The notes under the pieces are model-generated. The model saw nothing but the letters and a program-made list of their open reading frames with translations, was not told where the DNA came from and searched no databases. This document shows positions 14,101 to 28,768 of a stretch of 34,079 nucleotides of DNA, piece by piece (position 1 is the stretch's first letter; each line of letters opens with the position of its first letter). The position numbers were made by a program, and so were the translations under genes. The stretch is from an uncultured bacterium (GTDB taxonomy: Bacteria; Omnitrophota; Omnitrophia; Omnitrophales; Aquincolibacteriaceae). Location: contig CAZPCF010000002.1 in assembly GCA_964585045.1 (NCBI GenBank), forward strand, positions 1-34,079, in the 5' to 3' direction.

Positions 14101-14123
14101 AAAAGTTTCCTTAAGATGATGCC

Positions 14124-14188
14124 TGTCATTCCCGCGAAAGCGGGAATCCATTTTTTTGGATCCCCGATAAAAGCATTCGGGGATGACA
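14124..14188. repeat. Composite REP-like element with two adjacent hairpins (ATTCCCGC-GAAA-GCGGGAAT and ATCCCCGA-N9-TCGGGGAT), bracketed by GTCAT/ATGAC
   Basis: The element is inserted in the 120-nt hndC-hndD spacer. It creates the spurious peptides MDSRFRGNDR / IPAFAGMT / VIPAKAGIH / GSPIKAFGDD seen in the ORF track. Confidence 0.75.
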
Positions 14189-14220
14189 ATCTGTTAATTG
14201 GTATTTATTCCACTCTCGAA

Positions 14221-15960
14221 TTAGCTCCGGCTAATCGCACGCGGCTTGCAAACCTCAAAGCATTGACCGCAACGGGTGCATTTTGTCTGATCGATCAGAT
14301 AACCGCTTTCACGATTCCCGGAAATAGCGCCTACCGGGCAGGCCTTGAAACACATACCGCATTTCACGCATTTTTCGCTCATAATCCTGAACCGGATCAA
14401 TTTTTCACACTTGCAGGCCGGACACTTTTTCTTGTTCACATGAGCATCATATTCGGCGCGGTAATAGTGCAATGTCGAAAGCACCGGATTGGGAGCCGTT
14501 TGCCCCAGGCCGCAGAGCGACGCTTTTTGCATGGCGATCGAGATCTGTTCCAGCTGATCAAGATCTTTTTGAGTCCCTTCCCCGTCCGTGACTTTCCTGA
14601 GAAGTCTCAACATTTGCGTCCCGCCGATACGGCACGGAGCACACTTCCCGCAAGACTCATCCACGCAAAAGCCCAAATAGAATTTCGCGATATCCGCCAT
14701 GCAGTCATCCTCATCCATGACGATCATGCCGCCGGATCCCATGATGGAACCCATCTTTTGCAAACTTTCGTAATCCACCTTCGTTTGGAAAAATTCTTTT
14801 GGGATCACCCCGCCGGAAGGACCGCCGGTCTGGATCGCTTTGACGTTTTTCCCACTCATGGCGCCGCCGCAGATCCCATAAACGATATCTTCGATCGCGG
14901 TACCCATGGGGACCTCCACAAGACCTGAATTCTTCACTTTCCCGGTGACCGCGAACACTTTGGTCCCCTTGGAGCTTTCGGTCCCGATACCGGCGAACCA
15001 GGCCCCGCCTTTTATAAAAATGACCGGGATATTCGCCAGCGTCTCAACGTTATTGATACAGGTCGGTTTTCCCCAAAGCCCTTTAATGGATGGGAAAGGC
15101 GGACGGGGGCTCGGATAACCGCGCTTCCCTTCGATTGAGGCGATCAGCGCTGTTTCTTCACCGCACACGAAAGCCCCGGCGCCAAGCCGGATCTCCAGAT
15201 CTAAATTAAAAGACGAGCCCAGAATACCTTCACCCAGGATCCCGCGGTCGCGGCATTGCTGGATGGCCTTTTCGATCCTCTCGATCGCAAGCGGGTATTC
15301 CGCGCGAATATAGAAATACCCTTTGGAAGCACCGATCGCATAAGCTCCGATGATCATCCCCTCGATCACGGAATGCGGATCGCCCTCCAACACACTGCGA
15401 TCCATGTAGGCGCCCGGATCACCTTCGTCACCATTGCAAATGATATATTTCTGATCGCCCGGCGCCTTGCGCGTAATGTCCCATTTCAGCCCTGTTGGGA
15501 ACCCGGCGCCGCCGCGGCCACGAAGCCCGGAGGTTTTTATTTCCTGGGCAACCTTCTCCGGCGTATAACTGCTCAGAACCTTCGCAAGGGCCTGATATCC
15601 ATCCCGCGCGATATAATCCTCAATACTTTCCGGATCGATCACACCGCAATTGCGAAGCACGATACGAAGCTGTTTGGAAGGCTGCGTGATCGATTTACCT
15701 TCGACAGGCTTGCCGCCAATCACGCTTTCCAGAACGATCGCCGGGATATCATTTTCCTGGACGTTCGTATAGAGAAAGCTTTCCGGCAACACCCGGACAG
15801 TCATGCCTTGTCCGTAGATGCCAATATCCGCGACACGCACGAGCTGGACCTCATTCTCCAACCCTTTTTCCCTCAGGTTGTTGAGAAACACCCCGTAAAA
15901 GTCCCTCGTCTTATCCTTTCCGGTAATCGCCGTGTCTTTAATGAAAACTGTCTTCCCCAT
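14221..15960 (-). CDS. hndC: NuoF-like flavoprotein subunit (FMN/NAD(P)H-binding) of the multimeric [FeFe]-hydrogenase, HndC/HydB-type
   Basis: GLRGRGGAGFPTGLKW is the NADH/FMN site. ESCGKCAPCR...LCGLGQTAPNP is the N3 [4Fe-4S] site. The C-terminus has 2x[4Fe-4S] ferredoxin motifs (CVKCGMCFKACP, CTRCGQCFEVC). The N-terminal Trx-like domain has no Cys. Confidence 0.9.
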   Translation of the reverse strand: MGKTVFIKDTAITGKDKTRDFYGVFLNNLREKGLENEVQLVRVADIGIYGQGMTVRVLPESFLYTNVQENDIPAIVLESVIGGKPVEGKSITQPSKQLRIVLRNCGVIDPESIEDYIARDGYQALAKVLSSYTPEKVAQEIKTSGLRGRGGAGFPTGLKWDITRKAPGDQKYIICNGDEGDPGAYMDRSVLEGDPHSVIEGMIIGAYAIGASKGYFYIRAEYPLAIERIEKAIQQCRDRGILGEGILGSSFNLDLEIRLGAGAFVCGEETALIASIEGKRGYPSPRPPFPSIKGLWGKPTCINNVETLANIPVIFIKGGAWFAGIGTESSKGTKVFAVTGKVKNSGLVEVPMGTAIEDIVYGICGGAMSGKNVKAIQTGGPSGGVIPKEFFQTKVDYESLQKMGSIMGSGGMIVMDEDDCMADIAKFYLGFCVDESCGKCAPCRIGGTQMLRLLRKVTDGEGTQKDLDQLEQISIAMQKASLCGLGQTAPNPVLSTLHYYRAEYDAHVNKKKCPACKCEKLIRFRIMSEKCVKCGMCFKACPVGAISGNRESGYLIDQTKCTRCGQCFEVCKPRAISRS

Positions 15961-15975
15961 ATCGCGCCTAACTCC

Positions 15976-16326
15976 TCAATTAAGCTTCAGATCGTAGATC
16001 CGGTCGTTCACAAGCATCTTGCCGCCTACGTGTTTTTCCATGATCTTGATCGCAACTTCTTTATCCACTTTACCGTAAAACACCGTCGGCATATTCTTGA
16101 CATGGACTTCCATGAGCGGTTCCGCCGAACACATCCCTACGCATCCACACTTTTTGATCTCCACATCCGCGTTATGCTTACGGCTTTCCTCGACGAGCGT
16201 GTCGTAGACTTCCTTGGCCCCAGCCGCGATCCCACAGGTACTGTAACCTACCTTGATCCAGTTACGGTCGACCTCGCCGTGTTTCTGCTTGATGGATTCC
16301 AGGTCCTTTTTTGTCATTTTATTCAT
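15976..16326 (-). CDS. hndB: Thioredoxin-like [2Fe-2S] ferredoxin subunit, HndB-type
   Basis: 116 aa, with STCGIAAGA...KKCGCVGMCSAEP. SD is GGGAGGAAG. Confidence 0.8.
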   Translation of the reverse strand: MNKMTKKDLESIKQKHGEVDRNWIKVGYSTCGIAAGAKEVYDTLVEESRKHNADVEIKKCGCVGMCSAEPLMEVHVKNMPTVFYGKVDKEVAIKIMEKHVGGKMLVNDRIYDLKLN

Positions 16327-16344
16327 GCAGGCACTTCCTCCCTA

Positions 16345-16833
16345 TCACGCAGCCACTTGGGCTTCGGCTTCTTCAGAATAATGCGCGATAATATCGCCGA
16401 TATCTTTTTTCTTCACACCGCCATAAACCTTCTCCCCGATCTTCAACACCGGCGCCAACCCGCAGCACCCCAAACAACGGACCATTTCCAAATGGAATTG
16501 GCCGTCCTTGGTCGTCTCTCCGGGTTTGACACAGAGGAGATGTTCCAACTCCGCCATAATTTCGGCACCCCCTTTAAGATAACAGGCCGTTCCCATACAA
16601 ACAGAGATCGTGTGTTTTCCCGGAGGGGTCAGGCGGAAAAAGTGATAGAACGTGATCACTTCATAGATCCGGGCAAGGGGCACATCCAGGATCTCGGAAA
16701 GTATGAGCGAAACTTCGCGCGGCACGTACCCGTAGCGGTTCTGGATCTCATGAAGGATCATGATGAGATTACCTTCTTTATCCTTCCATTTTTCGGTCAA
16801 GCTGACGATATTCGCCCGCATGGTTTCATCCAT
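16345..16833 (-). CDS. hndA: NuoE-like [2Fe-2S] subunit, HndA/HydC-type
   Basis: VCMGTACYLKG...RCLGCCGLAP is the NuoE CX4C...CX3C pattern. Confidence 0.85.
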   Translation of the reverse strand: MDETMRANIVSLTEKWKDKEGNLIMILHEIQNRYGYVPREVSLILSEILDVPLARIYEVITFYHFFRLTPPGKHTISVCMGTACYLKGGAEIMAELEHLLCVKPGETTKDGQFHLEMVRCLGCCGLAPVLKIGEKVYGGVKKKDIGDIIAHYSEEAEAQVAA

Positions 16834-16876: not shown

Positions 16877-17260
16877 CTACTTCAAAATTTCCTCGATGGC
16901 TTTAAGAAGCTTTTCCGGTTTGACCGGCTTTTCCAATACTGTTTTGACGGGAAGCCAATGATCATCGGCTTCAAAACCGAAGGGGAGGTTGAATTCCTTC
17001 CGGATCCCGGTGACCATTACCACAGGAATATGGGATGTGACCTCATGGCTTTTCAGCTGCCGCGCCACATCAAAACCTTCTGTTTTCCGGGTCATCATCA
17101 CATCCAGCAAGATCAGGTCCGGTTTTTCGCCTTGCGCCTTTTCAAATCCGTCCGTTCCGTTGTAAGCCGTAGCTGTGGCATACCCCTTCGCCGCAAGCAT
17201 TGCCGCGACAGCATCTGAAAACTCCTTATCATCCTCGATGATCAATATCTTCTTGGCCAT
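16877..17260 (-). CDS. Stand-alone response-regulator receiver (REC-only) protein 2, a close paralogue of REC 1
   Basis: IIEDD, LILLDVMM, VVMVTG and LEKPVKP are present. By-eye alignment to 11862-12248 is roughly half identical, including the unusual WLPVK-x-VLEKPVKP C-terminus. Confidence 0.85.
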   Translation of the reverse strand: MAKKILIIEDDKEFSDAVAAMLAAKGYATATAYNGTDGFEKAQGEKPDLILLDVMMTRKTEGFDVARQLKSHEVTSHIPVVMVTGIRKEFNLPFGFEADDHWLPVKTVLEKPVKPEKLLKAIEEILK

Positions 17261-17315
17261 TCCATTCCTCCGTCAATGATCCCTGTTGTTTTGATAATCC
17301 TGCTGGAGCACAGCA

Positions 17316-17699
17316 CTAACCCACCCGACGGATCAACTCCAACAAGGTGGCCGGTTTCACGGGTTTGTCCAAAACCCCTTTGACATTGGTCCAGCTCTGG
17401 ATCATTTTACTTTCCTTGTCCGTCATCGTCACACGTTTAAAATATCCCGTCAGAAAGATCACGGGGATATGCTTCAGCTTCTCCTCCCGAAACATCCTGT
17501 CCGCAACTTCAAAGCCCAGCATTTGGTTTTGCATGAGAACATCCAAAAGAACCAGATCCGGGAGCGTTTCCTGAACCTTTGAAAAAACTGCCTGCCCCTG
17601 GGTTTCATGGTCCACTCGATACCCTTCCGCTTCCAGGACATTCTGGCAGGCCTCGATAAAATCCAAGTCATCATCGACCATGAGGATTCTTTTGATCAT
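17316..17699 (-). CDS. Stand-alone response-regulator receiver (REC-only) protein 3
   Basis: MVDDD, LVLLDVLM, VIFLTG and LDKPVKP are present. ATG 17699 has a GAGGAA SD. Confidence 0.8.
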   Translation of the reverse strand: MIKRILMVDDDLDFIEACQNVLEAEGYRVDHETQGQAVFSKVQETLPDLVLLDVLMQNQMLGFEVADRMFREEKLKHIPVIFLTGYFKRVTMTDKESKMIQSWTNVKGVLDKPVKPATLLELIRRVG

Positions 17700-17721
17700 C
17701 CGTCGTTCCTCTTTTGGGCCG

Positions 17722-18294
17722 CTAAGCGACGGCCGCAAGCTCCTTCTTTGTTGAGGATTTTTTTTTGCACTGGCCGGTGCATTTCCGATATTTTTTCAGA
17801 ACCCGGCCGACTTTTTCCGGCACCATACGGACATGCACGTCATCGTTGACCTGCATCACAGGCGAAAGGCCGCAACATCCGAGGCAACGGGTGATATCCA
17901 AACTGAACATCCCGTCTGCCGTAACATCACCCTCTTCGATCCCGAGCTCCTTTTTCATTTTCTCCAGGATCCGCGCTCCGCCCCCGACATAACAGGCCGT
18001 TCCTTTGCAAACGTGGATCTTGTTACGCGCCTTAGGTTTCAGGGAAAAATAATTATAAAAAGTTGCCATACCGTAAATGTGCGCCGTGGGAACATCCATT
18101 TTCTCTGAAACAAAATCCATGGCTTCGCGGGAGATGTGTCCAAAGAGTTCCTGGACTTTATGAAGAACACCCATCAGATGTCCTTTTTTGTCCGCTGTCG
18201 GAGGCTTTGCTCTGATGAATCTCTCAAGTTCCTTGAATTTTCCCTGCCATTCATTAGGGATCACTTTTTTTTGAGCGTGAACTTTCATTTTCAT
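17722..18294 (-). CDS. NuoE-like [2Fe-2S] subunit (HydC-type) of the second [FeFe]-hydrogenase, with a Cys-containing basic C-terminal tail
   Basis: VCKGTACYVGG...RCLGCCGLSP is present. The tail is ..KKYRKCTGQCKKKSS. Confidence 0.85.
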   Translation of the reverse strand: MKMKVHAQKKVIPNEWQGKFKELERFIRAKPPTADKKGHLMGVLHKVQELFGHISREAMDFVSEKMDVPTAHIYGMATFYNYFSLKPKARNKIHVCKGTACYVGGGARILEKMKKELGIEEGDVTADGMFSLDITRCLGCCGLSPVMQVNDDVHVRMVPEKVGRVLKKYRKCTGQCKKKSSTKKELAAVA

Positions 18295-18312
18295 CTTTCC
18301 TTTCTTCCCTCG

Positions 18313-20100
18313 TTACTGAAACAAATTGATGGCCTCTTTAACGTTCGTCGGAACCCCGCGCGGGTTTCGCGAATGGTAATGAGTATGAAGTAGTTTGTGC
18401 GACATGGGTCCCAGCGGCTTTTTGAGGAACTCTTCGTAGATCCTGGTAATGTCGGGATTCAAATGAGCTTTCCGGATCGTTTTCTTCTCGTCAATATTGT
18501 AGAGACCCTCCGCGCGTTTTTTGTAGACACTTGTATTCAAAGCTTCGGTGTCCCCCTGAGGATAAGGTTGCCCGCCGCCTCCCAGGCACCCTCCCGGACA
18601 GGCCATGATCTCAACGAAGTGGTATTGCCGCTTTCCCTCCTGGACCTCCGTCAGCAGTTTATGCACGTTGACAAGCCCGGAGGTGACCGCCACCCTCACA
18701 TCCAAACCGTCGACAGGGATCGTCGCTTCTTTGACGCCTTCCAAGCCCCGGACCTGTGTAAAATTGATATTGGGGAGCTCTTTGCCCGTGATCACTTCGT
18801 ACGCTGTCCGGAGCGCTGCTTCCATAACGCCTCCGGTCGCGCCAAAAATGGGTGCCGCGCCGCTCGATTCTCCCATTGGGGTATCGAATTCGGACTTTTT
18901 GAGGCTGTTGAATACGATCCCCGCCTCTTTGATCATTTTGATCAGTTCCCGGGTGGTCAGGACAGCATCCACATCCTGGAACCCGCTGGATCGCATCTCG
19001 GGTCGCACGGCCTCGAATTTCTTGGCGGTACAGGGCATGATACTTACGCTATAGATCTTTGCCGGGTCGATACCGGCTTTTTTCGCGTAATAAGTCTTGA
19101 TCAGCACCCCCATCATCTGCTGTGGGGACTTGCAAGTCGAGATATTCTCCAGAAATCCCGGGTGAAAAGTTTCGCAGAATTTGATCCATCCCGGCGAACA
19201 CGAGGTGATCATGGGAAATTTTCCGTTATTCTTCAAACGGTGGATGAATTCATTTCCCTCTTCAATGATCGTAAGGTCGGCCGAAAATTGCGTGTCAAAA
19301 ATAAAATCAAAGCCCAGCATGCGAAGGGCAGTCACTGTTTCGTAGGTCATGTCCTTGCCGGGTTCGTTCCCAAAACCTTCACCGATCGCCACACGGACAG
19401 CCGGGGCGATCTGAACCATCACGATCTTTTCGGGGTCATGAATGTTGCGCCATACTTCGTCCGTCATGTCACGTTCCACAAGCGCTCCGGTGGGACAAAC
19501 GTTCACGCATTGCCCGCAATTCGTGCAAACACTTTCGCCAAGCCCCATCCCGTAAGCGGGAACCACGTTGGTCTTGAATCCGCGATGAGAAAAAGTAAGG
19601 GCATTCGCTCCCTGGATCTCTGAACAAACACGCACGCATTTACCGCAAAGGATACATTTTTCAGAGTCGCGGACCACCGAAGGCGAGGTGTTGTCCACCG
19701 GAAAGATCTTTCGCTCTCCTTCAAAGGAAAATTCTTTGAGACCCATTTGCTCCGAAAGCTCCTGCAGGTCACAATCCCCGTTCTTGCCGCAGATCTGGCA
19801 ATCTTTGGGGTGGTTGCTTAATAAAAGCTCAAGAATGTGTTTGCGGGATTTGAGTACCCCCGCCGAATGCGACCGGACCACCATGCCATCCCTCACCTGT
19901 GTGGCGCAAGCGGGCGGATACGTCTTCATCCCGTCGACTTCTACGATACAGACCCGGCAGCCTCCAAAAGAACTCAACTTCGAGTGGTAACACAATCGGG
20001 GGATACGTATCCCGATCTGATCGGCCGCTTCCATAATGGTAGAGCCTTCTGGCACGGTCACCGGAATTCCGTCGATCACCACTTTTGCCTCTTTATTCAT
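18313..20100 (-). CDS. Second [FeFe]-hydrogenase catalytic subunit (M3-type plus small-subunit-like domain) with a non-canonical L1 motif
   Basis: Its Fe-S domain series matches hndD (HPKDCQICGKNGDC, CILCGKCVRVC, CTNCGQCVNVCP). Motif L2 is MPCTAKKFE and L3 is EIMACPGGCLGGGGQP, but L1 reads TSCSPGW instead of TSCCPxW. ATG 20100 overlaps the upstream stop as ATGA. Confidence 0.85.
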   Translation of the reverse strand: MNKEAKVVIDGIPVTVPEGSTIMEAADQIGIRIPRLCYHSKLSSFGGCRVCIVEVDGMKTYPPACATQVRDGMVVRSHSAGVLKSRKHILELLLSNHPKDCQICGKNGDCDLQELSEQMGLKEFSFEGERKIFPVDNTSPSVVRDSEKCILCGKCVRVCSEIQGANALTFSHRGFKTNVVPAYGMGLGESVCTNCGQCVNVCPTGALVERDMTDEVWRNIHDPEKIVMVQIAPAVRVAIGEGFGNEPGKDMTYETVTALRMLGFDFIFDTQFSADLTIIEEGNEFIHRLKNNGKFPMITSCSPGWIKFCETFHPGFLENISTCKSPQQMMGVLIKTYYAKKAGIDPAKIYSVSIMPCTAKKFEAVRPEMRSSGFQDVDAVLTTRELIKMIKEAGIVFNSLKKSEFDTPMGESSGAAPIFGATGGVMEAALRTAYEVITGKELPNINFTQVRGLEGVKEATIPVDGLDVRVAVTSGLVNVHKLLTEVQEGKRQYHFVEIMACPGGCLGGGGQPYPQGDTEALNTSVYKKRAEGLYNIDEKKTIRKAHLNPDITRIYEEFLKKPLGPMSHKLLHTHYHSRNPRGVPTNVKEAINLFQ

Positions 20101-23100
20101 GACTCCACCTCCACCATTTCTTTGCGGTCGCAGCGTAAACACCGGTCCGCCTCTTCACAAGCCTTTTTCTTGGAATAACACCGCTCCACTTCTTTAAAAG
20201 TCCGGATCCGTTGATGATCCGGTAATCGGGCCGGTTCCGGACGGAAGCGGACAGCCACCTCGGCAGTGGGCTCTACATAGGTTACTTCATGCCGTGTGCC
20301 ACGTATGACAAAGCGATCATGCGCCATATCTTCTCCTTTAAAATAACGATCGATGGAGACTGCCGCCCGCTCACCATCTGCGATCGCTTCCACGACCGTG
20401 GCGCCTCCTGTAACAGCATCCCCCCCGGCAAAGATCCCTGGAATATTCGTCGCCAAAGTCACCGGATCCACTTTCAAAGTGCCTGCTTTGGTCACTTCCA
20501 TGTTTAAATTTTTCGACCTGAACTCGGAAAGCTGCGGTTCGGCCCCGATCGCCATGATCACAACATCCGCGGAAAGGGACACCCTTTCCTCCGTCTGAAC
20601 CGCTTTCCTTCTCCCGCTAAGATCAAATTCTCCCGGCCGCATGCGCACACAATCCAGTTCGGAAACCCTGCCGTCTTTGCCTTTGATCGCTATCGGGTTC
20701 AACAGGAAATGGATCCGGACACCTTCCCGTTCTGCCTCCGCGATCTCTTCCGAAAAAGCCGGCATCGCGTCCTTAGTCCTCCGGTAGACAATATTGACTT
20801 CTTTGGCCCCGTAACGAAGCGCAGTACGGACTACATCGGTTGCCGCATTTCCTCCTCCGACCACCGCTACTTTTTTCCCGGTCAGGACCAGCGGCTCTTT
20901 CCCGGCCGCCATCGCATAAACACCTTTGACCTTTTTCACTTTTGAGGTCCTGCAATATTTTAAAAATATCAGGCTGTTCATGACCCCCGAAAGATCCATG
21001 CCTGGGATCGAAAGCCCTTTTTCCTGCCACGCACCCATCCCGAGAAAGGTCGCCTTGAAACCCTGTTTCTTCAGCTGCTCGAGAGAAATGTCCCGGCCGA
21101 TCCGGACGCCGGTTCTGATCTTCACCCCGGCTTTTTTAATACGCTCAATGTCCCGGTCCAGGATCTTATGCGGCAGCCGGTATTCCGGGATCCCGAGCGC
21201 CAGCATTCCTCCGACAACTTTTTCAGCTTCAAAAACAGTGACTGAGTATCCACGCTTTGCGAGATGATAAGCGCAGGAAAGTCCCGCAGGACCGCTTCCG
21301 ACCACCGCTACCTTTTCGGGACGCTTGGGACCTTCCCAGGTCTTTAGGGGAACGTTGTATTTGTCCGCGTAATCCGCCGCAAACTGCTTGAGCCTCATGA
21401 TCGCGACCGATTCGTCCAATTTCCCGCGACGGCAATTCGCCTCACAGGGATGATGACACACACGGCCACAGACAGAAGGAAGCGGATTACGTTCCAGGAT
21501 CTTTGCCAAACTCTCCCGGATCTTTCCCTGGCGGATCAATCCCACATAGAGTGGGATATCAACATTCACGGGACACGCGTGTTGACAAGAAGCCACGAAT
21601 AATTCACCGCAGACGACCGCAGGACACCGCTTTTCCTTGATATGAGCTTCATACTCACTGCGAAAAAAACGGATCGTTGACAGGACCGGATTCGGAGCTG
21701 TCTGACCCAAACCGCAAAGAGACGTCTTTTTGATCGTATCGCCCAGATCCTGAAGCCGTTCGATATCCCCCGCTTGGCCCTTACCCGCCGTGATCCGGTT
21801 GAGGATCTCAAGCATCCGCTTTGTTCCCTCGCGGCAAGGAGTACATTTTCCGCAAGACTCATCCTGCGTGAATTCAAGAAAGAACCGTGCCACATCCACC
21901 ATGCAATCGGTCTCATCCATCACAATAAGTCCGCCGGAACCCATGATAGAGCCCGCTTCAACCAAAGACTCGTAGTCGACGGGTGTATTCAAATACTGCA
22001 CCGGCAAACAACCGCCGGACGGACCGCCCGTTTGCGCTACTTTGAATCTTTTATCGTCTTTGATCCCCCCGCCGATGTCAAAAATGATCTCTCCCAAAGT
22101 CGTTCCCATAGGTACTTCCACAAGCCCCGTATTCCTGACCTTACCCGCCAAAGCAAAAACCTTTGTTCCTTTGCTTTTCTCAGTCCCGATGGAAGCAAAA
22201 AATTGATACCCGTCCAAAATGATCACAGGAATATTCGCCCACGTTTCGACGTTATTGATCAAAGTGGGCTTCCCCCACAATCCCCTGACGGGCGGATACG
22301 GCGGACGGATCCGAGGCATCCCGCGTTCCCCTTGGATCGAATGGATCAAGGCTGTTTCTTCGCCGCACACAAATGCTCCGGCACCCAACACGATCTCAAT
22401 ATCAAAACAGAAGGAGGTACCAAAAATATTTTTTCCTAAAAGATTATGTTGTCTCGCCTGCCTGATAGCCCCCTTGAGACGTTCGACCGCCAAGGGATAT
22501 TCCGCGCGTATGTAAACGATCCCCTTGCGGGCACCGACGGCAAAACCTCCTATCGTCATAGCCTCGATCACCGAGAAGGGATCCCCCTCGATGGTGCTCC
22601 GGTCCATAAAGGCACCGGGATCCCCTTCATCAGCATTGCAAATAACGTATTTTTCGTCCGCTTGCTGGTCGGCCACATATTTCCACTTGGTCCCCGTTGG
22701 GAAACCGCCCCCTCCGCGTCCCCGCAGCCCGGATTTTGACACTTCGTCGATAACCCGTTCGGGAGAATACTCCGCCAGGACCTTTGCCAAAGCTTCGTAG
22801 CCACGCACACACAAATAATCCTGCAAAGATTCCGGATCGATCACGCCGCAATTCCTGAGTACGATCCTTTTCTGCTTGGTAAAGTAATCGATATCTCCGA
22901 ATATAAAACGTGACTTATCGGTAAGGCAATCCTCGCTCGCGGAATAGTGCTCCCCGTTGGGATGTTTCAGGGGTTTGTTCTTGACCAAATGGTTTAGGAC
23001 TATTTTTTTGGCCAACTTGATATCGACGTTCTCGTATTTGAAGGGAGGCCGCCCTACTTGAAAAACCTCAACGGTCGGCTCCAAATGACAACGCCCCACG

Positions 23101-23306
23101 CATCCCTTTTGCCCGATATGAACGTCCCGGATCTTTCTCCGGGCGATCTCACGCCTGAAAGTTTCCATAACGATCTTGGAGCCGGCTGCGATCTCGCAGG
23201 TCGACATTCCGATGTTGATACGGGTCGACGCGGTCCACTTTTCAATATTTTCGTGAATGGCCTTTTGTTTGATCTTTTTTAGCAATGACCTCGCATCCCC
23301 TGACAT
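20097..23306 (-). CDS. Tripartite fusion of a Trx-like [2Fe-2S] domain, a NuoF-like FMN/NADH module (HydB-type) and a GltD/NfnB-like FAD/NADPH oxidoreductase module (1069 aa)
   Basis: Residues about 1-110 carry MSTCEIAAGS...KGCVGRCHLEP. Residues about 150-590 carry GLRGRGGGGFPTGTKW, ESCGKCTPCREG and LCGLGQTAPNP. Residues about 600-1000 carry CGRVCHHPCEANC, VAVVGSGPAGLSCA, VAVVGGGNAATD and IFAGGDAVTG. The C-terminal tail is ..CEEADRCLRCD. Confidence 0.85.
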   Translation of the reverse strand: MSGDARSLLKKIKQKAIHENIEKWTASTRINIGMSTCEIAAGSKIVMETFRREIARRKIRDVHIGQKGCVGRCHLEPTVEVFQVGRPPFKYENVDIKLAKKIVLNHLVKNKPLKHPNGEHYSASEDCLTDKSRFIFGDIDYFTKQKRIVLRNCGVIDPESLQDYLCVRGYEALAKVLAEYSPERVIDEVSKSGLRGRGGGGFPTGTKWKYVADQQADEKYVICNADEGDPGAFMDRSTIEGDPFSVIEAMTIGGFAVGARKGIVYIRAEYPLAVERLKGAIRQARQHNLLGKNIFGTSFCFDIEIVLGAGAFVCGEETALIHSIQGERGMPRIRPPYPPVRGLWGKPTLINNVETWANIPVIILDGYQFFASIGTEKSKGTKVFALAGKVRNTGLVEVPMGTTLGEIIFDIGGGIKDDKRFKVAQTGGPSGGCLPVQYLNTPVDYESLVEAGSIMGSGGLIVMDETDCMVDVARFFLEFTQDESCGKCTPCREGTKRMLEILNRITAGKGQAGDIERLQDLGDTIKKTSLCGLGQTAPNPVLSTIRFFRSEYEAHIKEKRCPAVVCGELFVASCQHACPVNVDIPLYVGLIRQGKIRESLAKILERNPLPSVCGRVCHHPCEANCRRGKLDESVAIMRLKQFAADYADKYNVPLKTWEGPKRPEKVAVVGSGPAGLSCAYHLAKRGYSVTVFEAEKVVGGMLALGIPEYRLPHKILDRDIERIKKAGVKIRTGVRIGRDISLEQLKKQGFKATFLGMGAWQEKGLSIPGMDLSGVMNSLIFLKYCRTSKVKKVKGVYAMAAGKEPLVLTGKKVAVVGGGNAATDVVRTALRYGAKEVNIVYRRTKDAMPAFSEEIAEAEREGVRIHFLLNPIAIKGKDGRVSELDCVRMRPGEFDLSGRRKAVQTEERVSLSADVVIMAIGAEPQLSEFRSKNLNMEVTKAGTLKVDPVTLATNIPGIFAGGDAVTGGATVVEAIADGERAAVSIDRYFKGEDMAHDRFVIRGTRHEVTYVEPTAEVAVRFRPEPARLPDHQRIRTFKEVERCYSKKKACEEADRCLRCDRKEMVEVES

Positions 23307-23353: not shown

Positions 23354-25189
23354 TCATGCCTTCGGCAATGTAAAAGCAAAAACATTTCCATCCGTCTGGG
23401 GCTCGACCCAAACCTTTCCTCCATGCTTTTCAATGATCTCTTTGATAATAAAAAGGCCCAGGCCCGTCCCCTTAATATGTTCGGACCCCGGCAACCGGGA
23501 AAACCGTTTGAACAGATGTTCTTTTTTCTCTGCCGGGACAGGACAACCTTCATTAAAAAACCGGAATTCAACATCATCCGGCCTGTCCTGGGCCGTCACA
23601 ACGATCTTCCCGCCTTGTTTCCCGTATTTTATGGCATTCCCTAACAAGTTGTTGCAGACGATCCCCAACAGGCTCTTGTCCACGGCAAGTTCAACGCCAG
23701 AGGGAACATGATCTTCAAGATTCATGTTCTTCTCTTGCTTTTGTTTTTCAAAATGCTGGATCGCCGGATGAAGAATGGCCTCTTTGAAAAGGATCTTCTC
23801 TTTTCGTGCCTCGAGTTCTCCTTTTTCGATCCTTGAGAGATCGAGATAATTTTTCACCATGCTTTCAAAGTGGTCCAGGCTTCTGGCCGCCGCATCGATC
23901 GCCTTTTTCTGGGCTGCATTCAACTCTCCCAAATAACCATCTTTCACGGAATAAACATTCATCACAATGGAGCCAAGGATACCCTTCAGCTCATGCGACA
24001 CAAATCCGATCATATCGAGGTAGCTTTTATTTAAGGCCGCCAGTTGTTCATTGGTGATCTTTAAACGAAGCTCCCTTTCTTGAAGCCTGTCTGCCATCTG
24101 GTTGAAAGATTCCGTCAGCTGTCCTATTTCCTTGATCGTTGTATGGACCTGGGCCTTGCTTTGGAGGTCCCCGTGGGCCAACCGTCTGATCGAGTGAAGC
24201 ATATCCAGGAACGAATTTGTCAGGAACCTGGAAAAAACAACGGAGAGGACGATAGCGATCAAGGTAATGCAAGTAATAATGGCGAGAATGGCGAGGAACA
24301 GATTGCGCTGCAATTCCACAAATGGTTTCTCGAGGATCCCGACGTAACGGATGCCAATAATTTTATCCTGGATGTTCTTGATCGGTTCATACGCGGTCAG
24401 ATACCAATCGGTCACTACGAACGCCCGGTCCTGCCACTTTTCCCCTTTTTCGACGACTTTTTTGTAAACGCTATCGGAGACAATAGTGCCGATCGCGCGT
24501 TCCCCGCGATCGTTCAGGACATTGGTCGTAACACGGGTGTCATCAAGAAAAATGGTCACGGTCCCGACGGGTTTCCCTTGGTAAAGTTTTTTCTCGAAAA
24601 TGGTATCGGAGATCTCATCGACTAGTTGAAAATTCTTATTGAAGATCTTCCCGCCGTAAAGAACCCCTGTGATCTCTCCTCCGGGGCCGACAAAGGGTCG
24701 CGCGTATTCAAGACCGATAGCTTTTTCCAGCCACCGGTCCGGGTGCGGGTGCGCTTTCGGCGTTGTTTTGATCTCGATCAATGCTTTTTCGAAATATTCT
24801 TTTCCCATGGAGAGCAGTTCTTCTTTTCCAAGGATCCGCTTCCCTCCCGCCGGCCGATGCGTTGCTACAGCTTTTTGAACGATTTCGCTATGGGACTTGT
24901 TCGCATCGACCGGTGTGATCTGATACAAATAATCCAACCCCAGTATCTTCTTGAGGTCTTCCAGGGAAGTATCAGGCCTCGCAAGAGTGAAAGCCGTTGC
25001 CATTTTCTCAATTTGTTTCTCATAAACAGACGGAATAGCCTTGAGGTTTTGGTTCACCTGCTTTTGGGCCTCGCCCATGATATAGGTCTTAACCACAGAA
25101 AAGCCGAGCACAGACATGGAAATGCTCAAGAGGGCCACCAAAAACAAAAATGACGCCAGAATGCTGGTTCTAAGCTTTATGGGTTTCAT
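23354..25189 (-). CDS. Sensor histidine kinase with TM, periplasmic Cache-type domain, TM, HAMP, HisKA and HATPase_c
   Basis: There are two TM segments. The periplasmic region carries DDTRVTTNV...GERAIGT...AFVVTDWYLTAYEPI (Cache-like). A HAMP domain follows, then H-box FVSHELKG, N-box NLLGNAIKYG and G-box GTGLGLFIIKE. ATG 25189 (SD AGGAG) is preferred over 25213. Confidence 0.85.
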   Translation of the reverse strand: MKPIKLRTSILASFLFLVALLSISMSVLGFSVVKTYIMGEAQKQVNQNLKAIPSVYEKQIEKMATAFTLARPDTSLEDLKKILGLDYLYQITPVDANKSHSEIVQKAVATHRPAGGKRILGKEELLSMGKEYFEKALIEIKTTPKAHPHPDRWLEKAIGLEYARPFVGPGGEITGVLYGGKIFNKNFQLVDEISDTIFEKKLYQGKPVGTVTIFLDDTRVTTNVLNDRGERAIGTIVSDSVYKKVVEKGEKWQDRAFVVTDWYLTAYEPIKNIQDKIIGIRYVGILEKPFVELQRNLFLAILAIITCITLIAIVLSVVFSRFLTNSFLDMLHSIRRLAHGDLQSKAQVHTTIKEIGQLTESFNQMADRLQERELRLKITNEQLAALNKSYLDMIGFVSHELKGILGSIVMNVYSVKDGYLGELNAAQKKAIDAAARSLDHFESMVKNYLDLSRIEKGELEARKEKILFKEAILHPAIQHFEKQKQEKNMNLEDHVPSGVELAVDKSLLGIVCNNLLGNAIKYGKQGGKIVVTAQDRPDDVEFRFFNEGCPVPAEKKEHLFKRFSRLPGSEHIKGTGLGLFIIKEIIEKHGGKVWVEPQTDGNVFAFTLPKA

Positions 25190-25817
25190 GTTGCTCCTGA
25201 CGATCCCATGCATTCACAAAATAAAGGATGGTTTCAAGCTCCCGTCCCAGATTGACATTATGGACCACGAATTTCTCGGGAGTATTCAAGCGAACCGGCG
25301 CAAAATTCAAGACCCCCTTGATCCCCGCGGCCATCATCTGGTCCAACACCTGCTGAGCGACCAACTCGGGAACCGCAAGGATCCCGACCTTGATCTTATT
25401 TTTTTTGATAAAATCTTTGAGCTCTCCGAAGGGCAGCGTCGGCACCTCGGCAGAACGATTTACTTTTTGCTCATCCGTGTCAAAAGCTGCTGCGATGTGA
25501 AGATCACTGGCAAGAAAACCCTTATAGTTCATCAAAGCTCGCCCGATATTGCCGCTTCCGACCACGATCACGGGGTACTTTTTGTCCTTGCCCAAAAGCG
25601 CATCAAGCTTCTGGATCAGCTCATCGATCTGATACCCGCCCCGCTTATTCCCCACGAGACCAAAAAGCGAGAAATCTTTCCGGACCTGTACGGCCGTCGC
25701 CCCGATCGCGTCTGCCATGTTCTCCGAGAAAACCTTCACGAATCCGAGGTATTTAAGACGTAAAAGAGCCTCCCGGTAGCTATAAAGTCGGGTGACGGAG
25801 CTTTTACTGGTTTTCAT
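25170..25817 (-). CDS. rex: Redox-sensing transcriptional repressor Rex (NADH/NAD+ sensor)
   Basis: RLYSYREAL..L......V.S..MA...G....QVRKDFS.FG..G.RG.GY is the winged-helix region, followed by the VVGSGNIGRAL Rossmann motif. SD is GAGGGAAC. A matching operator lies upstream. Confidence 0.85.
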   Translation of the reverse strand: MKTSKSSVTRLYSYREALLRLKYLGFVKVFSENMADAIGATAVQVRKDFSLFGLVGNKRGGYQIDELIQKLDALLGKDKKYPVIVVGSGNIGRALMNYKGFLASDLHIAAAFDTDEQKVNRSAEVPTLPFGELKDFIKKNKIKVGILAVPELVAQQVLDQMMAAGIKGVLNFAPVRLNTPEKFVVHNVNLGRELETILYFVNAWDRQEQHETHKA

Positions 25818-25838: not shown

Positions 25839-25848
25839 TAATAAGGAT

Positions 25849-25876
25849 AATATAGTCTATTAATTAAATAGGTCAA
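25849..25876 (-). promoter_or_regulatory. Sigma70-type promoter candidate for rex and the downstream gene string
   Basis: On the minus strand, TTGACC (25876-25871), a 16-nt spacer and TATATT (25854-25849). It sits in the only AT-rich gap of this region. Confidence 0.45.
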
Positions 25877-25882
25877 TATTTA

Positions 25883-25900
25883 TTGTGATTTATTTCACAT
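25883..25900. promoter_or_regulatory. Rex operator (TTGTGA-TTTATT-TCACAT)
   Basis: A perfect TGTGA-N6-TCACA inverted repeat lies 7 nt upstream of the -35 element and 66 nt upstream of the rex start. It matches the published Rex consensus TTGTGAAnnnnTTCACAA at all core positions. Confidence 0.6.
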
Positions 25901-25951: not shown

Positions 25952-26665
25952 TTACAGACCGAGGAAACGTATCGCTAGGCCGCAAAGGAGAATCGTGCCG
26001 CCGGCCATGGCGTGCATATAGCGTTCAAACAACTTCAAGGGAAGGAGCTGGATGCCCCACCGGGTGACGGCTACCAGGGTCATCATGGTCGCGATGGTCA
26101 CCGTACCAAAGGCTGTGGCAACCCAGAATACACCGATCAGATTGCTCCTGGCCGCCGGATACATCACAAGCGGAATAAGCGGTTCGCACGGGCCGAACAC
26201 AAAGATCGTGAAAAGGATCCATGGCGTCAGGCTGGGTTCTTCTTTGCGGGTATGAAGATGGGCATGACCTTCCTGATGGACATGGGTATGCCGGTGAACT
26301 TCCCCATCGGCATGGACGTGCAAATGGACGTGCGGCTTATTCTGGACCGCCTTCCGGATCCCCCAGACCATGTAAAGAAGCCCGAAAGCGATCAAAAGCC
26401 ATGCCGCGATCTCCCCGCGCTGGGATTCGATGAACTCTAGCTTCGAAACCGCGATCCCACAAACGATTCCCACGAAACCGAGTACGACCGAACTCAGGAT
26501 ATGCCCCACCCCGCAAAGGAATGTAACCCCCATGGTTTTCCCGAGGGACCAGTTCCTAGCTTTGGAGATAACGGTAAAGGGAACGTAATGGTCGGGCCCT
26601 ACAAGTGTGTGAATGAACCCCAAGGAAGCGGCCGTAACGGTCAGAAGCCCTAGGCTGTGTTCCAT
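25952..26665 (-). CDS. Nickel/cobalt transporter (NiCoT/NicO-superfamily-like membrane protein with a His-rich loop)
   Basis: Polytopic membrane protein. HTLVGPDH resembles the HX4DH Ni/Co signature. The central loop HVHLHVHADGEVHRHTHVHQEGHAHLH is His-rich. Context with hyp genes supports the call. The exact family is not certain. Confidence 0.6.
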   Translation of the reverse strand: MEHSLGLLTVTAASLGFIHTLVGPDHYVPFTVISKARNWSLGKTMGVTFLCGVGHILSSVVLGFVGIVCGIAVSKLEFIESQRGEIAAWLLIAFGLLYMVWGIRKAVQNKPHVHLHVHADGEVHRHTHVHQEGHAHLHTRKEEPSLTPWILFTIFVFGPCEPLIPLVMYPAARSNLIGVFWVATAFGTVTIATMMTLVAVTRWGIQLLPLKLFERYMHAMAGGTILLCGLAIRFLGL

Positions 26666-28251: not shown

Positions 28252-28291
28252 CTTAGGGGACAAGTATTATTTGACTGCCTGTCCCCTAAAG
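28252..28291. repeat. Copy 3 of the GGGGACA...TGTCCCC hairpin element (opposite orientation to copy 1); it overlaps the endopeptidase stop codon
   Basis: TTAGGGGACA (28253-28262) pairs perfectly with TGTCCCCTAA (28280-28289), with a 17-nt loop. Its reverse complement aligns to 297-335. Confidence 0.7.
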
Positions 28292-28768
28292 ATGTGCAAA
28301 ATTTCTTTTAATAACATCCACGATCTCGTCCGCCGTTTGCCGCACTTCAGGAGAAAGTCCTTCTCCCAAAGTTACGGTCTTCGGCTGGATGCCGATAAAA
28401 ATGATCTTGGCACCCGTGCTTTCCGTGATGAGCCGCGATACCACATTCATGGGGACCATGTGCGTCGTAAGGGTGGTTTCCGGAATGGCCTCCTCCGAAA
28501 TCACCCGAACCTCGCCGGGTTTTCCGCCGAAATCCGCAGCATCCAGGATGATCACCCTCGAAGGTTTCAGTTCAGTCGCCTCATCGATAATATTCTCCGG
28601 CGTTTGTCCGGCATCGAGAAGCCTGACCGGAAGATCCATCAGAAAAGAAGCGAGATAGGATCCGACCCCATCATCGCTGCGAAAAGGATTCCCGACCGTC
28701 AGGAAAAGATCGAGGCCTTGACCGGGTTTCAGAACGTCGAGAACGTCACCGGTTAACGAATTTGACAT
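28286..28768 (-). CDS. [NiFe]-hydrogenase maturation endopeptidase (HycI/FrhD/HoxW family)
   Basis: LTVGNPFRSDDGVGSYLA is the GNxxxxDDGxG motif, together with ILDAADFG. It lies immediately downstream of the large subunit, overlapping its 3' end. Confidence 0.85.
   Translation of the reverse strand: MSNSLTGDVLDVLKPGQGLDLFLTVGNPFRSDDGVGSYLASFLMDLPVRLLDAGQTPENIIDEATELKPSRVIILDAADFGGKPGEVRVISEEAIPETTLTTHMVPMNVVSRLITESTGAKIIFIGIQPKTVTLGEGLSPEVRQTADEIVDVIKRNFAHL

Follow-up and report, generated by a model that had tools for sequence, protein, structure and literature searches.

A BfuB-type subunit with a putative permuted GltD-type module in place of the ferredoxin domain, encoded with a predicted trimeric [FeFe]-hydrogenase in an uncultured member of the Omnitrophota

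A C-terminal 2x[4Fe-4S] ferredoxin domain, with the clusters B3 and B4, has been described as conserved in all BfuB subunits (Schut et al., 2022), and in the bifurcating HydABC hydrogenases of A. woodii (PDB 7q4v), T. kivui (8a6t) and T. maritima (7p5h) it is the proposed ferredoxin site. The StnABC/NfnABC complexes, Bfu-type transhydrogenases (PDB 8oh5, 9bov, 9n5u), retain B3/B4 for ferredoxin in their BfuB and carry a GltD module inserted in the NuoG-like A subunit, where it supplies the mid-potential input, which runs from the A clusters to B1. StnC was found by experiment to be non-bifurcating and NADPH-specific. NfnL (NfnB), the large subunit of NfnSL/NfnAB (PDB 4ylf, 5jca), is paired with NfnS and bifurcates electrons at its FAD. 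An architecture in which B3/B4 is swapped for DPD_II (2x[4Fe-4S]) and a FAD/NAD(P) domain was named “sub-type I BfuB” in an in silico study centred on Hydrogenedentota (Zheng and Huang, 2024, mSystems, PMC11406978); there, sub-type I BfuABC is trimeric, contains an M3a HydA and has homologues in many bacterial phyla. An archaeal group F hybrid [FeFe]/[NiFe] hydrogenase whose HydB carries a glutamate-synthase-type domain has also been described (Greening et al., 2024, Cell, PMC11216029). No biochemistry for any member of this fusion family was found in the literature.

The window analysed here, the whole stretch of 34,079 nucleotides, encodes such a protein. The gene hydB2-gltD (20097..23306, minus strand) is an open reading frame of 1069 aa with zero internal stops and a GGAGG sequence 8 nt 5' of its ATG, and its product is a fused flavoprotein made up of a BfuB core and a permuted GltD/NfnL-like module. 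The first-pass annotation had read HydB/NuoF and GltD/NfnB modules in a single frame, as the Pfam domains confirmed, and had pointed to 21500-21700 as the place where a missed stop or frameshift might be hidden; this junction was in frame, and at least 80 independent genomes share it. More than 120 homologues were found at full length (1000-1100 aa), in independent sources that included a cultured organism with a complete genome. A homologue is present in the cultured Thermanaeromonas toyohensis. Every one of the 80 best genome loci covered the junction (query aa 525-715), mostly over its full length, and the linker was short and conserved, with invariant residues flanking it on both sides. 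Because of these homologues, and because the C-terminal motif was kept at the end of 71 of the 72 fused ORFs from other genomes, hydB2-gltD is not an assembly artefact but a real gene. The alternative that separate nuoF-like and gltD-like genes were joined through an overlooked stop, a frameshift or chimeric assembly, for which no support was found and against which the unbroken frame also speaks, can be practically discounted. The architecture is not new, since it was published in 2024 as sub-type I BfuB, and the layout is widespread.

All five Pfam domains anticipated in the first-pass annotation were matched: Complex1_51K (aa 189-360, 2.5e-45), SLBB (384-432), NADH_4Fe-4S (471-555, 4e-37), Fer4_20 (553-650, 6.7e-25) and Pyr_redox_2 (665-978, 2.7e-31). 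Residues 29-570 corresponded to a HydB/BfuB-type NuoF module and residues 574-1060 to a GltD/NfnL-type module; the respective PDB sequence matches were 7q4v_B (2e-212 over aa 35-570) and 9bov_A (8e-109 over aa 573-1063). The order of Fer4_20, equivalent to DPD domain II, and Pyr_redox_2 after the NuoF core is that of sub-type I. The AF2 model of the fusion reached a pLDDT of 83.6 and a pTM of 0.81.

The BfuB core is predicted to be intact, with its FMN/NAD(H) site, B1 cluster, B2 His/Cys motif and B5-type N-domain. The NuoF/BfuB core itself (aa 140-556; 21639..22889, minus strand; Complex1_51K, SLBB and NADH_4Fe-4S) contained the FMN/NAD(H) site GLRGRGGGGFPTG and the invariant B1/N3 [4Fe-4S] cysteines C485, C488, C491 and C531, in agreement with the NuoF module and N3 cluster proposed earlier. 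Its identity to the BfuB/HydB of Csac NfnABC and of A. woodii was 57% over the Foldseek alignment; the match on the StnABC/NfnABC side was 9bp5_B, with a TMt of 0.85. The B2 (Zn/“hinge”) motif H555-x5-C561-x4-C566 (AHIKEKRCPAVVC; 21609..21644, minus strand) matched that of known BfuB sequences, among them A. mobile HydB and A. woodii HydB (AHIRDKKCPAGVC), and is the same as in the bifurcating HydABC enzymes; H555, C561 and C566 were invariant, and in the solved enzymes three Cys and one His ligate this site. The N-terminal thioredoxin-like domain (putative B5 site; aa 28-110; 22977..23225, minus strand) aligned with the StnB/NfnB N-domain (8oh5_B, 9bov_B) from residue 29, which upheld the fold given in the first-pass annotation. 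Just three Cys were present in it (C37, C69 and C73, the last two invariant), with E76 as candidate fourth ligand, and Pfam 2Fe-2S_thioredx gave no match in this N-terminal domain. The B5 site of StnB/NfnB likewise has three Cys, and in Csac NfnB it binds Zn through three Cys and one Glu; the B5 metal varies among the solved structures ([2Fe-2S] or Zn).

Beyond the B2 motif the likeness to BfuB stopped. Alignments to every BfuB in the PDB ended at fusion residues ~570-574, and no Fer4 dicluster or other Fer4-type domain was detected by Pfam in hydB2-gltD, whereas HydB1, encoded in the same window, does carry a Fer4 domain. Instead, the permuted GltD/NfnL-type module started seven residues past the B2 motif, and in a pairwise alignment the fusion sequence ASCQHACPV fell on the first ferredoxin motif of HydB1, GMCFKACPV. 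The GltD-type module stands in place of the C-terminal B3/B4 ferredoxin domain, as had been noted from the sequence at the outset. In comparison with the BfuB of Schut et al. (2022) and with bifurcating HydABC, the FMN/B1 and B2 sites and the BfuA/BfuC partners were all found, but the B3/B4 domain was missing.

The GltD-type Fe-S domain (aa 574-650; 21357..21587, minus strand) was matched by Fer4_20 only from profile position 16, and contained the motifs C574-x3-C578-P and C613-x3-C617-x3-C621-E-x2-C625 together with K640, all invariant. The C-terminal tail (aa 1022-1060; 20127..20243, minus strand; RxFxEV...EAxRC1056LRC1059) aligned with NfnL residues 10-44 (4ylf_B) or 10-46 (5jca_L) and with NfnA/StnC residues ~540-570, and was modelled at a pLDDT of 83-91. 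In it, F1037, E1039, C1056 and C1059 were invariant, and C1050 and C1043 were not conserved. The tail is, on this alignment evidence, the canonical N-terminal CxxC segment of GltD/NfnL relocated to the C-terminus by circular permutation, as in StnC/NfnA, and the relocated CxxC would complete the first (distal) cluster. The motif CEEADRCLRCD had been regarded at first as the orphan start of another GltD Fe-S domain. This was rejected: the motif is colinear with the segment that follows the insert in StnC/NfnA, and belongs to the same Fe-S domain as its permuted N-terminal segment. The whole module aligned colinearly with 9bov_A (104-570) and 8oh5_C (103-572), and like StnC/NfnA it has CxxxCP where the Fe-S domain is entered, RCLxC where it is left and Lys as a ligand of the proximal cluster; its bit score was higher against 9bov_A (368) than against NfnL (310) or GltD (223).

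By homology, the ligands of the distal [4Fe-4S] cluster were assigned as C574, C625, C1056 and C1059, and those of the proximal one as C578, C617, C621 and K640; in an ungapped alignment the latter four fell on the A7 ligands of Csac NfnA (C108, C147, C151 and K170). A Lys/Cys switch is known at the FAD-proximal cluster of StnC, and the likewise invariant C613 could substitute for K640 as ligand. The FAD and NADP(H) Rossmann domains (aa 665-990; 20337..21314, minus strand; Pyr_redox_2) contained the two dinucleotide folds reported earlier, GSGPAG at 670-675 and GGGNAA at 817-822. The residues Y841-R842-R843 were invariant and belong to a YRRT motif common to the NADPH-dependent NfnL, StnC and NfnA; motif homology (GGGNAA, YRRT) predicts NADPH specificity for the module. 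In Foldseek the fusion matched 5jca_L with a TMt of 0.81. With NfnL it has the motifs for Fe-S, FAD and NADPH in common, among them R710, which aligns with Pfu R201.

The fusion differs from NfnL at the proximal cluster and in the segment order. NfnL has Glu at the ligand position (RLERF) and the canonical order of Fe-S segments; the fusion has Lys (RLKQF), in a permuted order. Across 49 fused ORFs, the column of K640 showed Lys in 46 and His in three, and never Glu. The Lys ligand and the permutation, both shared with StnABC/NfnABC along with the FAD and the YRRT motif, point to a non-bifurcating NADPH input module of the StnC/NfnA type and not to a bifurcating NfnL. An identity as NfnL was rejected, with the Glu ligand replaced by K640 and the NfnS partner missing from the operon.

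In NfnSL, ferredoxin is reduced via both [4Fe-4S] clusters of NfnL. By analogy, ferredoxin could still be a substrate of the fusion complex: it would dock at the GltD clusters, and the FAD would be a second bifurcation centre of the NfnL kind. The enzyme would then be a hydrogenase combined with an Nfn-type transhydrogenase. The “DIP” loop and the extra C613, common to the module and T. maritima NfnL but not to StnC, agree with this. Such a role has been published as a suggestion, as a second FAD centre by Zheng and Huang (2024; PMC11406978) and as a ferredoxin site drawn on the glutamate-synthase domain by Greening et al. (2024; PMC11216029). Nevertheless, Glu defines the low-potential proximal cluster of NfnL, and its absence from the 49 fused ORFs disfavours the second FAD centre. 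Furthermore, the module scored higher against the non-bifurcating NfnA than against NfnL, and no NfnS-like partner ([2Fe-2S] + FAD, PyrK-like) was found in the hydB2-A2-C2 operon. This explanation is considered improbable. The nearest PyrK-like gene (30819-31733) is part of a separate NiFe cluster.

The fusion gene is followed by hydA2 (18313..20100, minus strand), which encodes an M3-type [FeFe]-hydrogenase catalytic subunit of 595 aa with the Pfam domains Fer2_4, NADH-G_4Fe-4S_3, Fer4, Fe_hyd_lg_C and Fe_hyd_SSU; its best PDB matches were the bifurcating HydA of T. kivui (8e-192) and of A. woodii. The ATGA overlap between the two genes, put forward earlier as a sign of translational coupling, was verified at 20097-20100 (hydB2-gltD stop TGA 20099-20097, hydA2 ATG 20100-20098). 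Downstream, the expected NuoE/HydC was found as hydC2 (17722..18294, minus strand), which encodes a BfuC-like [2Fe-2S] subunit of 190 aa (2Fe-2S_thioredx, 1.2e-47). Close homology to the bifurcating HydABC subunits extends over HydA2, HydC2 and, in the fusion, residues 29-570. The three proteins are assigned, from their sequences, to a heterotrimeric group A3 [FeFe]-hydrogenase, “sub-type I BfuABC”, with the hydB2-gltD product as B subunit. A link to HydDB group A2, suggested in the first-pass annotation, was abandoned. That “glutamate synthase-linked” group, for which an NAD(P)-linked function has been postulated, shares with the present locus a GltD-type flavoprotein alongside an [FeFe] hydrogenase, but its rule requires a GltD-type (GltA/GltD) neighbour “but not NuoF”; since the neighbouring protein here contains a NuoF domain, the rule leads to A3. 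The archaeal system of PMC11216029, likened by description, also has a NuoF-like HydB with a glutamate-synthase-type domain in a hydrogenase operon, but is a five-subunit complex with a HydA-HyhS fusion.

The Stn complexes had been invoked at first as the parallel for the GltD subunit. They hold as an analogue, not as the same arrangement, because the Stn module sits on a NuoG-like and not on a NuoF-like subunit; in the fusion it is at the C-terminus of BfuB, replacing B3/B4, and is combined with an A subunit that is a true hydrogenase. The most economical reading would be that H2 is linked to both NAD(H) and NADP(H). Since the module replaces the B3/B4 domain, we infer that the low-potential branch would end in NADP(H). 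Both GltD clusters would take the functional place of B3/B4, with electrons passing between them and the mobile C1 of HydC2 (an assumed contact), and the FMN/B1/C1 bifurcation site would have a low-potential branch that runs to the FAD and on to NADP(H) instead of to free ferredoxin. The reaction would be 2 H2 + NAD+ + NADP+ <-> NADH + NADPH + 2 H+, without ferredoxin. A BfuABC of this kind, with a permuted GltD module and NADP(H) in place of ferredoxin, is plausible, if a little short of probable. In the H2-forming direction, a more reducing NADPH pool would help to pull the NADH pool, and H2 could then be formed, with no need of ferredoxin, to pressures of about 10^2 Pa (redox potentials from Schut et al., 2022, Table 1); an NADH-only HydAB reaches 2-40 Pa. 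A canonical ferredoxin-dependent HydABCD is encoded adjacent to the fusion locus, and would cover the other redox regime.

With H2 at -414 mV, the reduction of NAD+ and of NADP+ is in each case exergonic; therefore, obligatory coupling is not thermodynamically required in the uptake direction. H2 being reducing enough for either nucleotide, electrons from the H-cluster might equilibrate with NAD(H) or NADP(H) independently, via B1/FMN and the GltD clusters, in a plain H2:NAD(P)+ oxidoreductase that may double as an NADH/NADPH transhydrogenase, with no obligatory bifurcation or confurcation. HydB homologues lacking B3/B4 are indeed non-bifurcating NADH-dependent hydrogenases, and the GltD module here belongs to the Stn type, which does not bifurcate. 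However, those non-bifurcating homologues lack B2-B5, whereas three features that set a bifurcating BfuB apart from a plain NuoF are kept and invariant here, namely the His/Cys motif of B2, the putative B5 domain and a HydC partner, and the 57% core identity (Foldseek alignment) is to bifurcating BfuB/HydB. The uncoupled enzyme is considered rather unlikely.

A HydC homologue adjoined the fusion in most related loci, and a HydA with an H-cluster lay directly downstream in 35 of 82. The gene order in the window is B-A-C, and C-B-A in most relatives; the portion of PMC11406978 considered here gives B-A-C for its sub-type III only, and contains no mention of the permutation, the Lys ligand or non-[FeFe] partners. 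The fused B subunit was also found paired with [NiFe] hydrogenase and formate dehydrogenase partners, and would therefore define a general “NADH + NADPH” Bfu variant. That the present enzyme belongs to such a variant, as a ferredoxin-independent, nucleotide-to-nucleotide confurcating hydrogenase whose Bfu flavin/iron-sulfur site would split or merge electrons between NAD(H) at the FMN and NADP(H) at the fused FAD, with H2 as third substrate, is proposed tentatively. If true, syntrophs and fermenters with this variant would have their thresholds for H2 and formate set near 10^2 Pa.

Behind the fusion of one relative, Loki_b31 (L080), come genes for a small Fer2 protein, for a protein with a Glu_synthase domain and for glutamate dehydrogenases; L013 has ORFs of matching size. 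These neighbours would suit a module that, like true GltD, has a second protein as its physiological electron acceptor, for example an FMN subunit of the glutamate-synthase alpha type, and not NADP(H). For the present locus this is very improbable: the 34-kb window contains no gene with a Glu_synthase domain, translational coupling links the fusion to hydA2, an H-cluster HydA is the next gene downstream in many related loci, and the NADPH-type YRR motif is invariant. With the alpha partner carrying the Glu_synthase FMN domain missing from the window, GltD proper (the glutamate synthase beta subunit) was rejected as an identity.

Two single-domain response regulators (Pfam Response_reg; 16877..17738, minus strand) lie downstream of hydC2, and a response-regulator pair also follows hydC in locus L002. 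A candidate control region (25847..25900) combines a Rex-box-like palindrome (25883-25900) with the best sigma-70-like site (25876-25847, minus strand); the count of such pattern matches is not above chance, and the position alone is suggestive. Between it and the fusion, on the minus strand (23354..25817), Pfam matches indicated a Rex-type redox repressor (25170-25817) and a Cache/HAMP histidine kinase (23354-25213). The Rex...HK-hydB order is repeated in L002, and the upstream Rex gene at both loci fits a redox-balancing role.

The gene hydB2-gltD (20097–23306, minus strand) was found to encode 1069 aa with zero internal stops in translation, and a GGAGG lies 8 nt 5' of its ATG. Five domains were matched by Pfam in this single frame: Complex1_51K (aa 189–360), SLBB (aa 384–432), NADH_4Fe-4S (aa 471–555), Fer4_20, the domain II of DPD (aa 553–650), and Pyr_redox_2 (aa 665–978). 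The same scan did not find a ferredoxin-type Fer4 dicluster domain in the protein. The dinucleotide motifs GSGPAG (aa 670–675) and GGGNAA (aa 817–822) and the N3/B1 cysteines (C485, C488, C491 and C531) were located in the sequence, and the GC content is uniform over the NuoF/GltD junction. The stop codon TGA (20099–20097) overlaps the ATG (20100–20098) of hydA2 (18313–20100), which encodes a complete M3-type [FeFe] hydrogenase and is followed by the NuoE-like hydC2 (17722–18294). The single-frame fusion, its motifs and cysteines, the ATGA coupling to HydA and the following NuoE/HydC gene, all read from the sequence by the first-pass annotation, were thus borne out.

The same fusion was found in other genomes. 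In a protein search, more than 120 clusters of 1000–1100 aa shared its Pfam set, at identities from 91% downwards; one homologue comes from a cultured organism with a complete genome, Thermanaeromonas toyohensis ToBE, and the closest named relatives are Omnitrophota MAGs (74–76% identity). A genome search, using one genome per GTDB species and queried with a junction alignment restricted to aa 525–715, gave at least 596 stretches confirmed by tblastn. The best 80 of these all cover the junction query, the majority in full, and in them the NuoF core runs into the GltD part without a change of frame. These 80 loci belong to Omnitrophota, Firestonebacteria, Chloroflexota, Armatimonadota, Bacillota, Bacteroidota, many Desulfobacterota (Syntrophales, Smithella, Desulfobacterales), Planctomycetota, Verrucomicrobiota, Spirochaetota, Acidobacteriota, Nitrospirota, Alphaproteobacteria and a Promethearchaeota MAG. 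The fused subunit is therefore present in at least 80 species-level genomes, including many syntrophic Desulfobacterota, PVC-group bacteria and an Asgard archaeon. A frameshift or chimera joining nuoF-like and gltD-like genes was ruled out by the conserved continuous ORF; with more than 120 full-length clusters, one from a cultured organism's complete genome, an assembly or frame error is a scarcely credible explanation of the fusion.

When compared with solved structures, aa 29–570 aligned end to end with the BfuB/HydB subunits of bifurcating enzymes, the PDB matches being A. woodii 7q4v_B (2e-212), A. mobile NiFe-HydB 7t2r_B, StnB 8oh5_B and Csac NfnB 9bov_B. The "hinge" motif of the B2 metal site reads AHIKEKRCPAVVC in the fusion and AHIRDKKCPAGVC in A. 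woodii, and its residues H555, C561 and C566 are invariant in 40 family members. All of the BfuB alignments end at around residue 570–574, where the ferredoxin domain of HydB, carrying the B3 and B4 sites, would start. At this point the canonical paralogue HydB1, 56% identical in the core, carries its Fer4 dicluster; in the fusion, just 7 residues lead from C566 to C574. The second part (aa 573–1063) best matched the GltD-like insert of Csac NfnA (9bov_A 104–570, 368 bits), followed by T. sibiricus NfnA, StnC (8oh5_C 103–572), NfnL (4ylf_B, 310 bits) and true GltD (223 bits). An AlphaFold2 model built on a 40-sequence alignment reached a mean pLDDT of 83.6 and a pTM of 0.81. Its halves were matched separately by Foldseek, to BfuB with a TMt of 0.85–0.94 (57% identity) and to NfnL with a TMt of 0.81, and no PDB chain spanning both halves was found in this search. 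The enzyme is a BfuABC-type hydrogenase in which FMN/NAD(H), B1, the B2 motif, the B5-type domain and HydC are all kept, and a Stn-type NADP(H)/FAD/2x[4Fe-4S] module occupies the exact usual place of B3/B4.

The last ~45 residues of the fusion show the pattern RxFxEV...EAxRCLRC, whose "orphan" CEEADRCLRCD had been taken for the start of another GltD-type Fe-S domain. This reading was rejected, since just 10 residues follow the CxxC, the tail aligns with the N-terminus of NfnL (4ylf_B 10–44; 5jca_L 10–46), and [RHK]C[LFM]xC ends 71 of 72 fused ORFs from other genomes. In NfnA and StnC, the stretch after the GltD insert also aligns colinearly with the tail. Canonical NfnL has the order RCLQC-x4-C-x3-CP, and the fusion enters the module at C574-x3-C578-P and exits after C1056-x2-C1059, so the GltD module is circularly permuted or, equivalently, shows a domain-insertion geometry as in StnC/NsoC. 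F1037, E1039, C1056 and C1059 are invariant in the family alignment, C1050 (the first cysteine of the supposed second domain) and C1043 are not conserved, and the tail is modelled with a pLDDT of 83–91. Cluster ligands were assigned by alignment to solved structures. In Csac NfnA, C108, C147, C151 and K170 have been published as ligands of A7, the FAD-proximal cluster. In an ungapped alignment they correspond to C578, C617, C621 and K640 of the fusion. By elimination, and following the ligand pattern of dihydropyrimidine dehydrogenase, the distal cluster would be held by C574, C625, C1056 and C1059. The module contains C613 as an additional invariant cysteine.

The proximal ligand bears on whether the FAD of the module could bifurcate. 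In NfnL this cluster has a Glu ligand, thought to give it a very low potential, whereas in StnC/NfnA the ligand is Lys, the FAD is non-bifurcating and the module merely feeds NADPH electrons into the chain. The alignment showed RLERF in NfnL versus RLKQF in the fusion. K640 is invariant in the family alignment, and across 49 fused ORFs from other genomes its column holds Lys in 46, His in three and Glu in none, so the module is of the Stn/NfnA type. Such a module weakens the published speculation on a second FAD bifurcation centre. An enzyme in which ferredoxin is still involved, together with an NfnL-like second centre, is accordingly regarded as improbable. R710 (R201 of Pfu NfnL) was also considered as a marker of bifurcating FAD and was uninformative because it is conserved in StnC as well. 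The motif YRRT (Y841–R843, invariant), common to the NADPH-dependent NfnL, StnC and NfnA, is by homology probably an NADPH-type motif in the fusion.

To our knowledge, all characterised Bfu enzymes pass the low-potential electron to ferredoxin via B3/B4. In hydB2-gltD the GltD clusters would take the place of B3/B4 in exchanging electrons with the mobile C1 cluster of HydC, so that the low-potential branch would end in NADP(H) and not in ferredoxin. The reaction would be 2 H2 + NAD+ + NADP+ <-> NADH + NADPH + 2 H+, and the ferredoxin-linked regime would be covered by the neighbouring canonical HydABCD. This ferredoxin-free hydrogenase coupled to NADH and NADPH is proposed tentatively, with somewhat less than an even chance of being right; a hydrogenase using both nucleotides in an uncoupled manner is a less likely alternative. 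Physiological potentials of about −280 mV for NADH, −380 mV for NADPH and −414 mV for H2 have been given (Schut 2022). With a Nernst slope of 29.6 mV per decade, the mean of the nucleotide pair (about −330 mV) corresponds in our calculation to an H2 pressure of roughly 10^2 Pa at equilibrium, above the 2–40 Pa reached by NADH-only HydAB and below the range of ferredoxin-assisted HydABC. Control by Rex would fit a role as redox valve. If the coupling is real, the NADH and NADPH pools could be balanced against H2 or formate without ferredoxin.

The partners of the fused B subunit were surveyed at 82 loci. An H-cluster HydA lies directly downstream in 35 of them. A NuoG-like protein and a [NiFe] large subunit accompany the fused B in 10 loci (L011, 8614–12622, and nine others, mostly from Acidobacteriota). 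Ten further loci have a NuoG-like N-domain protein with no H-cluster or NiFe match, and molybdopterin formate dehydrogenases were detected by Pfam in all three of these that were scanned (L027, 8621–12213; L035, 8509–11223; L012, 8505–11570); in L027 the formate dehydrogenase ORF is split in two and followed by a FocA transporter. In the Promethearchaeota Loki_b31 locus (L080, 8599–13654), downstream of a NuoE and NuoF-GltD pair lie a Fer2_4 protein of 237 aa, a Glu_synthase-domain protein of 526 aa and a glutamate dehydrogenase, and then a second ORF as long as the last. This points to a glutamate-synthase-like complex linked to NADH and not to a hydrogenase. L013 (8786–11092) resembles this locus in the length of its ORFs (235 and 526 aa). 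Electron delivery to a glutamate-synthase-like partner is very improbable for hydB2-gltD itself, and no Glu_synthase-domain gene was found in the 34-kb window. With [FeFe], [NiFe], formate dehydrogenase and glutamate-synthase-like partners, the fused B is a module that can take the place of canonical BfuB.

The usual gene order at these loci is C-B-A. Among the 82 loci, B-A-C was seen only in the window and in the relatives nearest to it, L002 and L003; the contig of L004 opens with B-A and ends thereafter. The order C, B(GltD), C', B', A, with a canonical B after the fused one, was observed in five of the 35 HydA loci (L005, L047, L056, L065 and L066, at ~4000–12600 in each). Two different B/C pairs before one HydA could form mixed complexes, or the B(GltD)C unit could stand alone.

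The architecture of hydB2-gltD has already been noticed in silico. Zheng and Huang (2024; PMC11406978) describe homologues of it, as sub-type I BfuB, in several phyla and report no biochemistry, and Greening et al. (2024; PMC11216029) modelled an archaeal HydB whose glutamate-synthase domain was a putative ferredoxin site. GltD-fused HydB is unmentioned in Losey 2020, the "Fantastic [FeFe]-hydrogenases" review and Schut 2022, and no experimental characterisation of any fused-B member was found in the literature. The closest characterised analogue, Stn/NfnABC, differs in carrying its GltD module on the A subunit and not on B. Schut et al. (2022) define Bfu by the absolute conservation of B1–B5, and hydB2-gltD departs from this strict definition at B3/B4. 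The HydDB rule for class A2 excludes neighbours containing NuoF, so the HydA2 enzyme falls into A3. Its operon would be mis-sorted by the downstream-gene rule of HydDB. The fusion and domain reading of the first-pass annotation stood, and its reading of the tail and the link to group A2 did not, so that its interpretation was supported in part. The gene is a new, Omnitrophota-clade member of a widespread architecture; this analysis adds that the tail is a cluster segment moved by permutation, that Lys in place of Glu speaks for a non-bifurcating Stn-type FAD module, and that [NiFe] hydrogenases, formate dehydrogenases and glutamate-synthase-like proteins are also among the partners of the fused B. 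As a natural variant in which NADP(H) would be hard-wired in the place of B3/B4, it tests what the low-potential branch requires. Owing to its presence across so many species, the fused subunit could affect the thresholds for H2 and formate in anoxic environments, and such proteins are currently annotated as "NuoF" or "FAD-dependent oxidoreductase".

The window is a hydrogenase island with nearly all genes on the minus strand. A hydE-like radical SAM gene, hydG and hydF (7478–11355), a strong terminator-like hairpin (11765–11734) and a response regulator (11862–12254) are found beside the canonical tetrameric cluster (12349–16833, minus strand). This comprises hydA1 (12349–14151), hydB1 with an intact Fer4 dicluster (14221–15960), a small Trx-like hydD/bfuD-like ORF (15976–16326) and hydC1 (16345–16833), all on the minus strand. 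It lies directly downstream of the fused cluster (17722–23306) on the same strand, and two response regulators (16877–17260 and 17316–17738) lie between them. A Cache/HAMP histidine kinase (23354–25213) and Rex (25170–25817) follow on the other side. The closest relatives of hydB2-gltD keep this layout: L002 has Rex, CMD, HK, hydB-gltD, hydA, hydC and two response regulators. In T. toyohensis, nuoE, two small genes, hydB-gltD and hydA are surrounded by HydS-type sensors and maturases. The fused enzyme and canonical HydABCD appear to share one gene string regulated by Rex and two-component proteins, which sets up a direct comparison of the paralogues. HydA1 and HydA2 are 51% identical. The P1 motif of HydA2 is TSCSPGW (aa 300–306; 19194–19214) instead of the usual TSCCPxW, and HydA1 has TTCCPSW. 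Catalytic impairment of HydA2 by this motif was dropped as an idea, because TSCSPGW also occurs in A. woodii HydA1, which is biochemically active, and in almost all HydAs beside a fused B (L001–L081); the motif is a lineage trait and not a defect.

The best sigma-70-like site (25876–25847, minus strand) lies upstream of rex and abuts a Rex-box-like palindrome, TTGTGATTTATTTCACAT (25883–25900, one mismatch). The pattern search of the window gave this one match against ~1.3 (1.26) expected by chance, a count not above chance, and it is no more than a positional hint. Genes for three stand-alone receiver-domain proteins and the histidine kinase are scattered among the hyd genes, and no DNA-binding output domain was found in these four.

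Additionally, a group-3b-like [NiFe] cluster (28286–32704, minus strand) codes for a HycI-type protease, large and small subunits, a gamma subunit (FAD/NAD) resembling PyrK/NfnS and a beta subunit with Fer4_22, so that three soluble hydrogenases are encoded in 21 kb of this genome. An unusual maturase fusion of 433 aa (26680–27981, minus strand), in which an N-terminal HupF/HypC domain (1–64) is joined to a radical-SAM domain (148–304), is located between the [FeFe] and [NiFe] sets. A predicted membrane protein of 237 aa (25952–26665, minus strand), with the His-rich loop HVHLHVHADGEVHRHTHVHQEGHAHLH and zero Pfam matches, may be a Ni/Co transporter for the NiFe enzyme. Near the window edge, an ORF of 204 aa (33448–34062, minus strand) matched the C-terminal half of Pyr_redox_2 only (profile 140–291) and may represent a GltD/NfnB-like gene that is truncated, is interrupted or carries a recoded stop.
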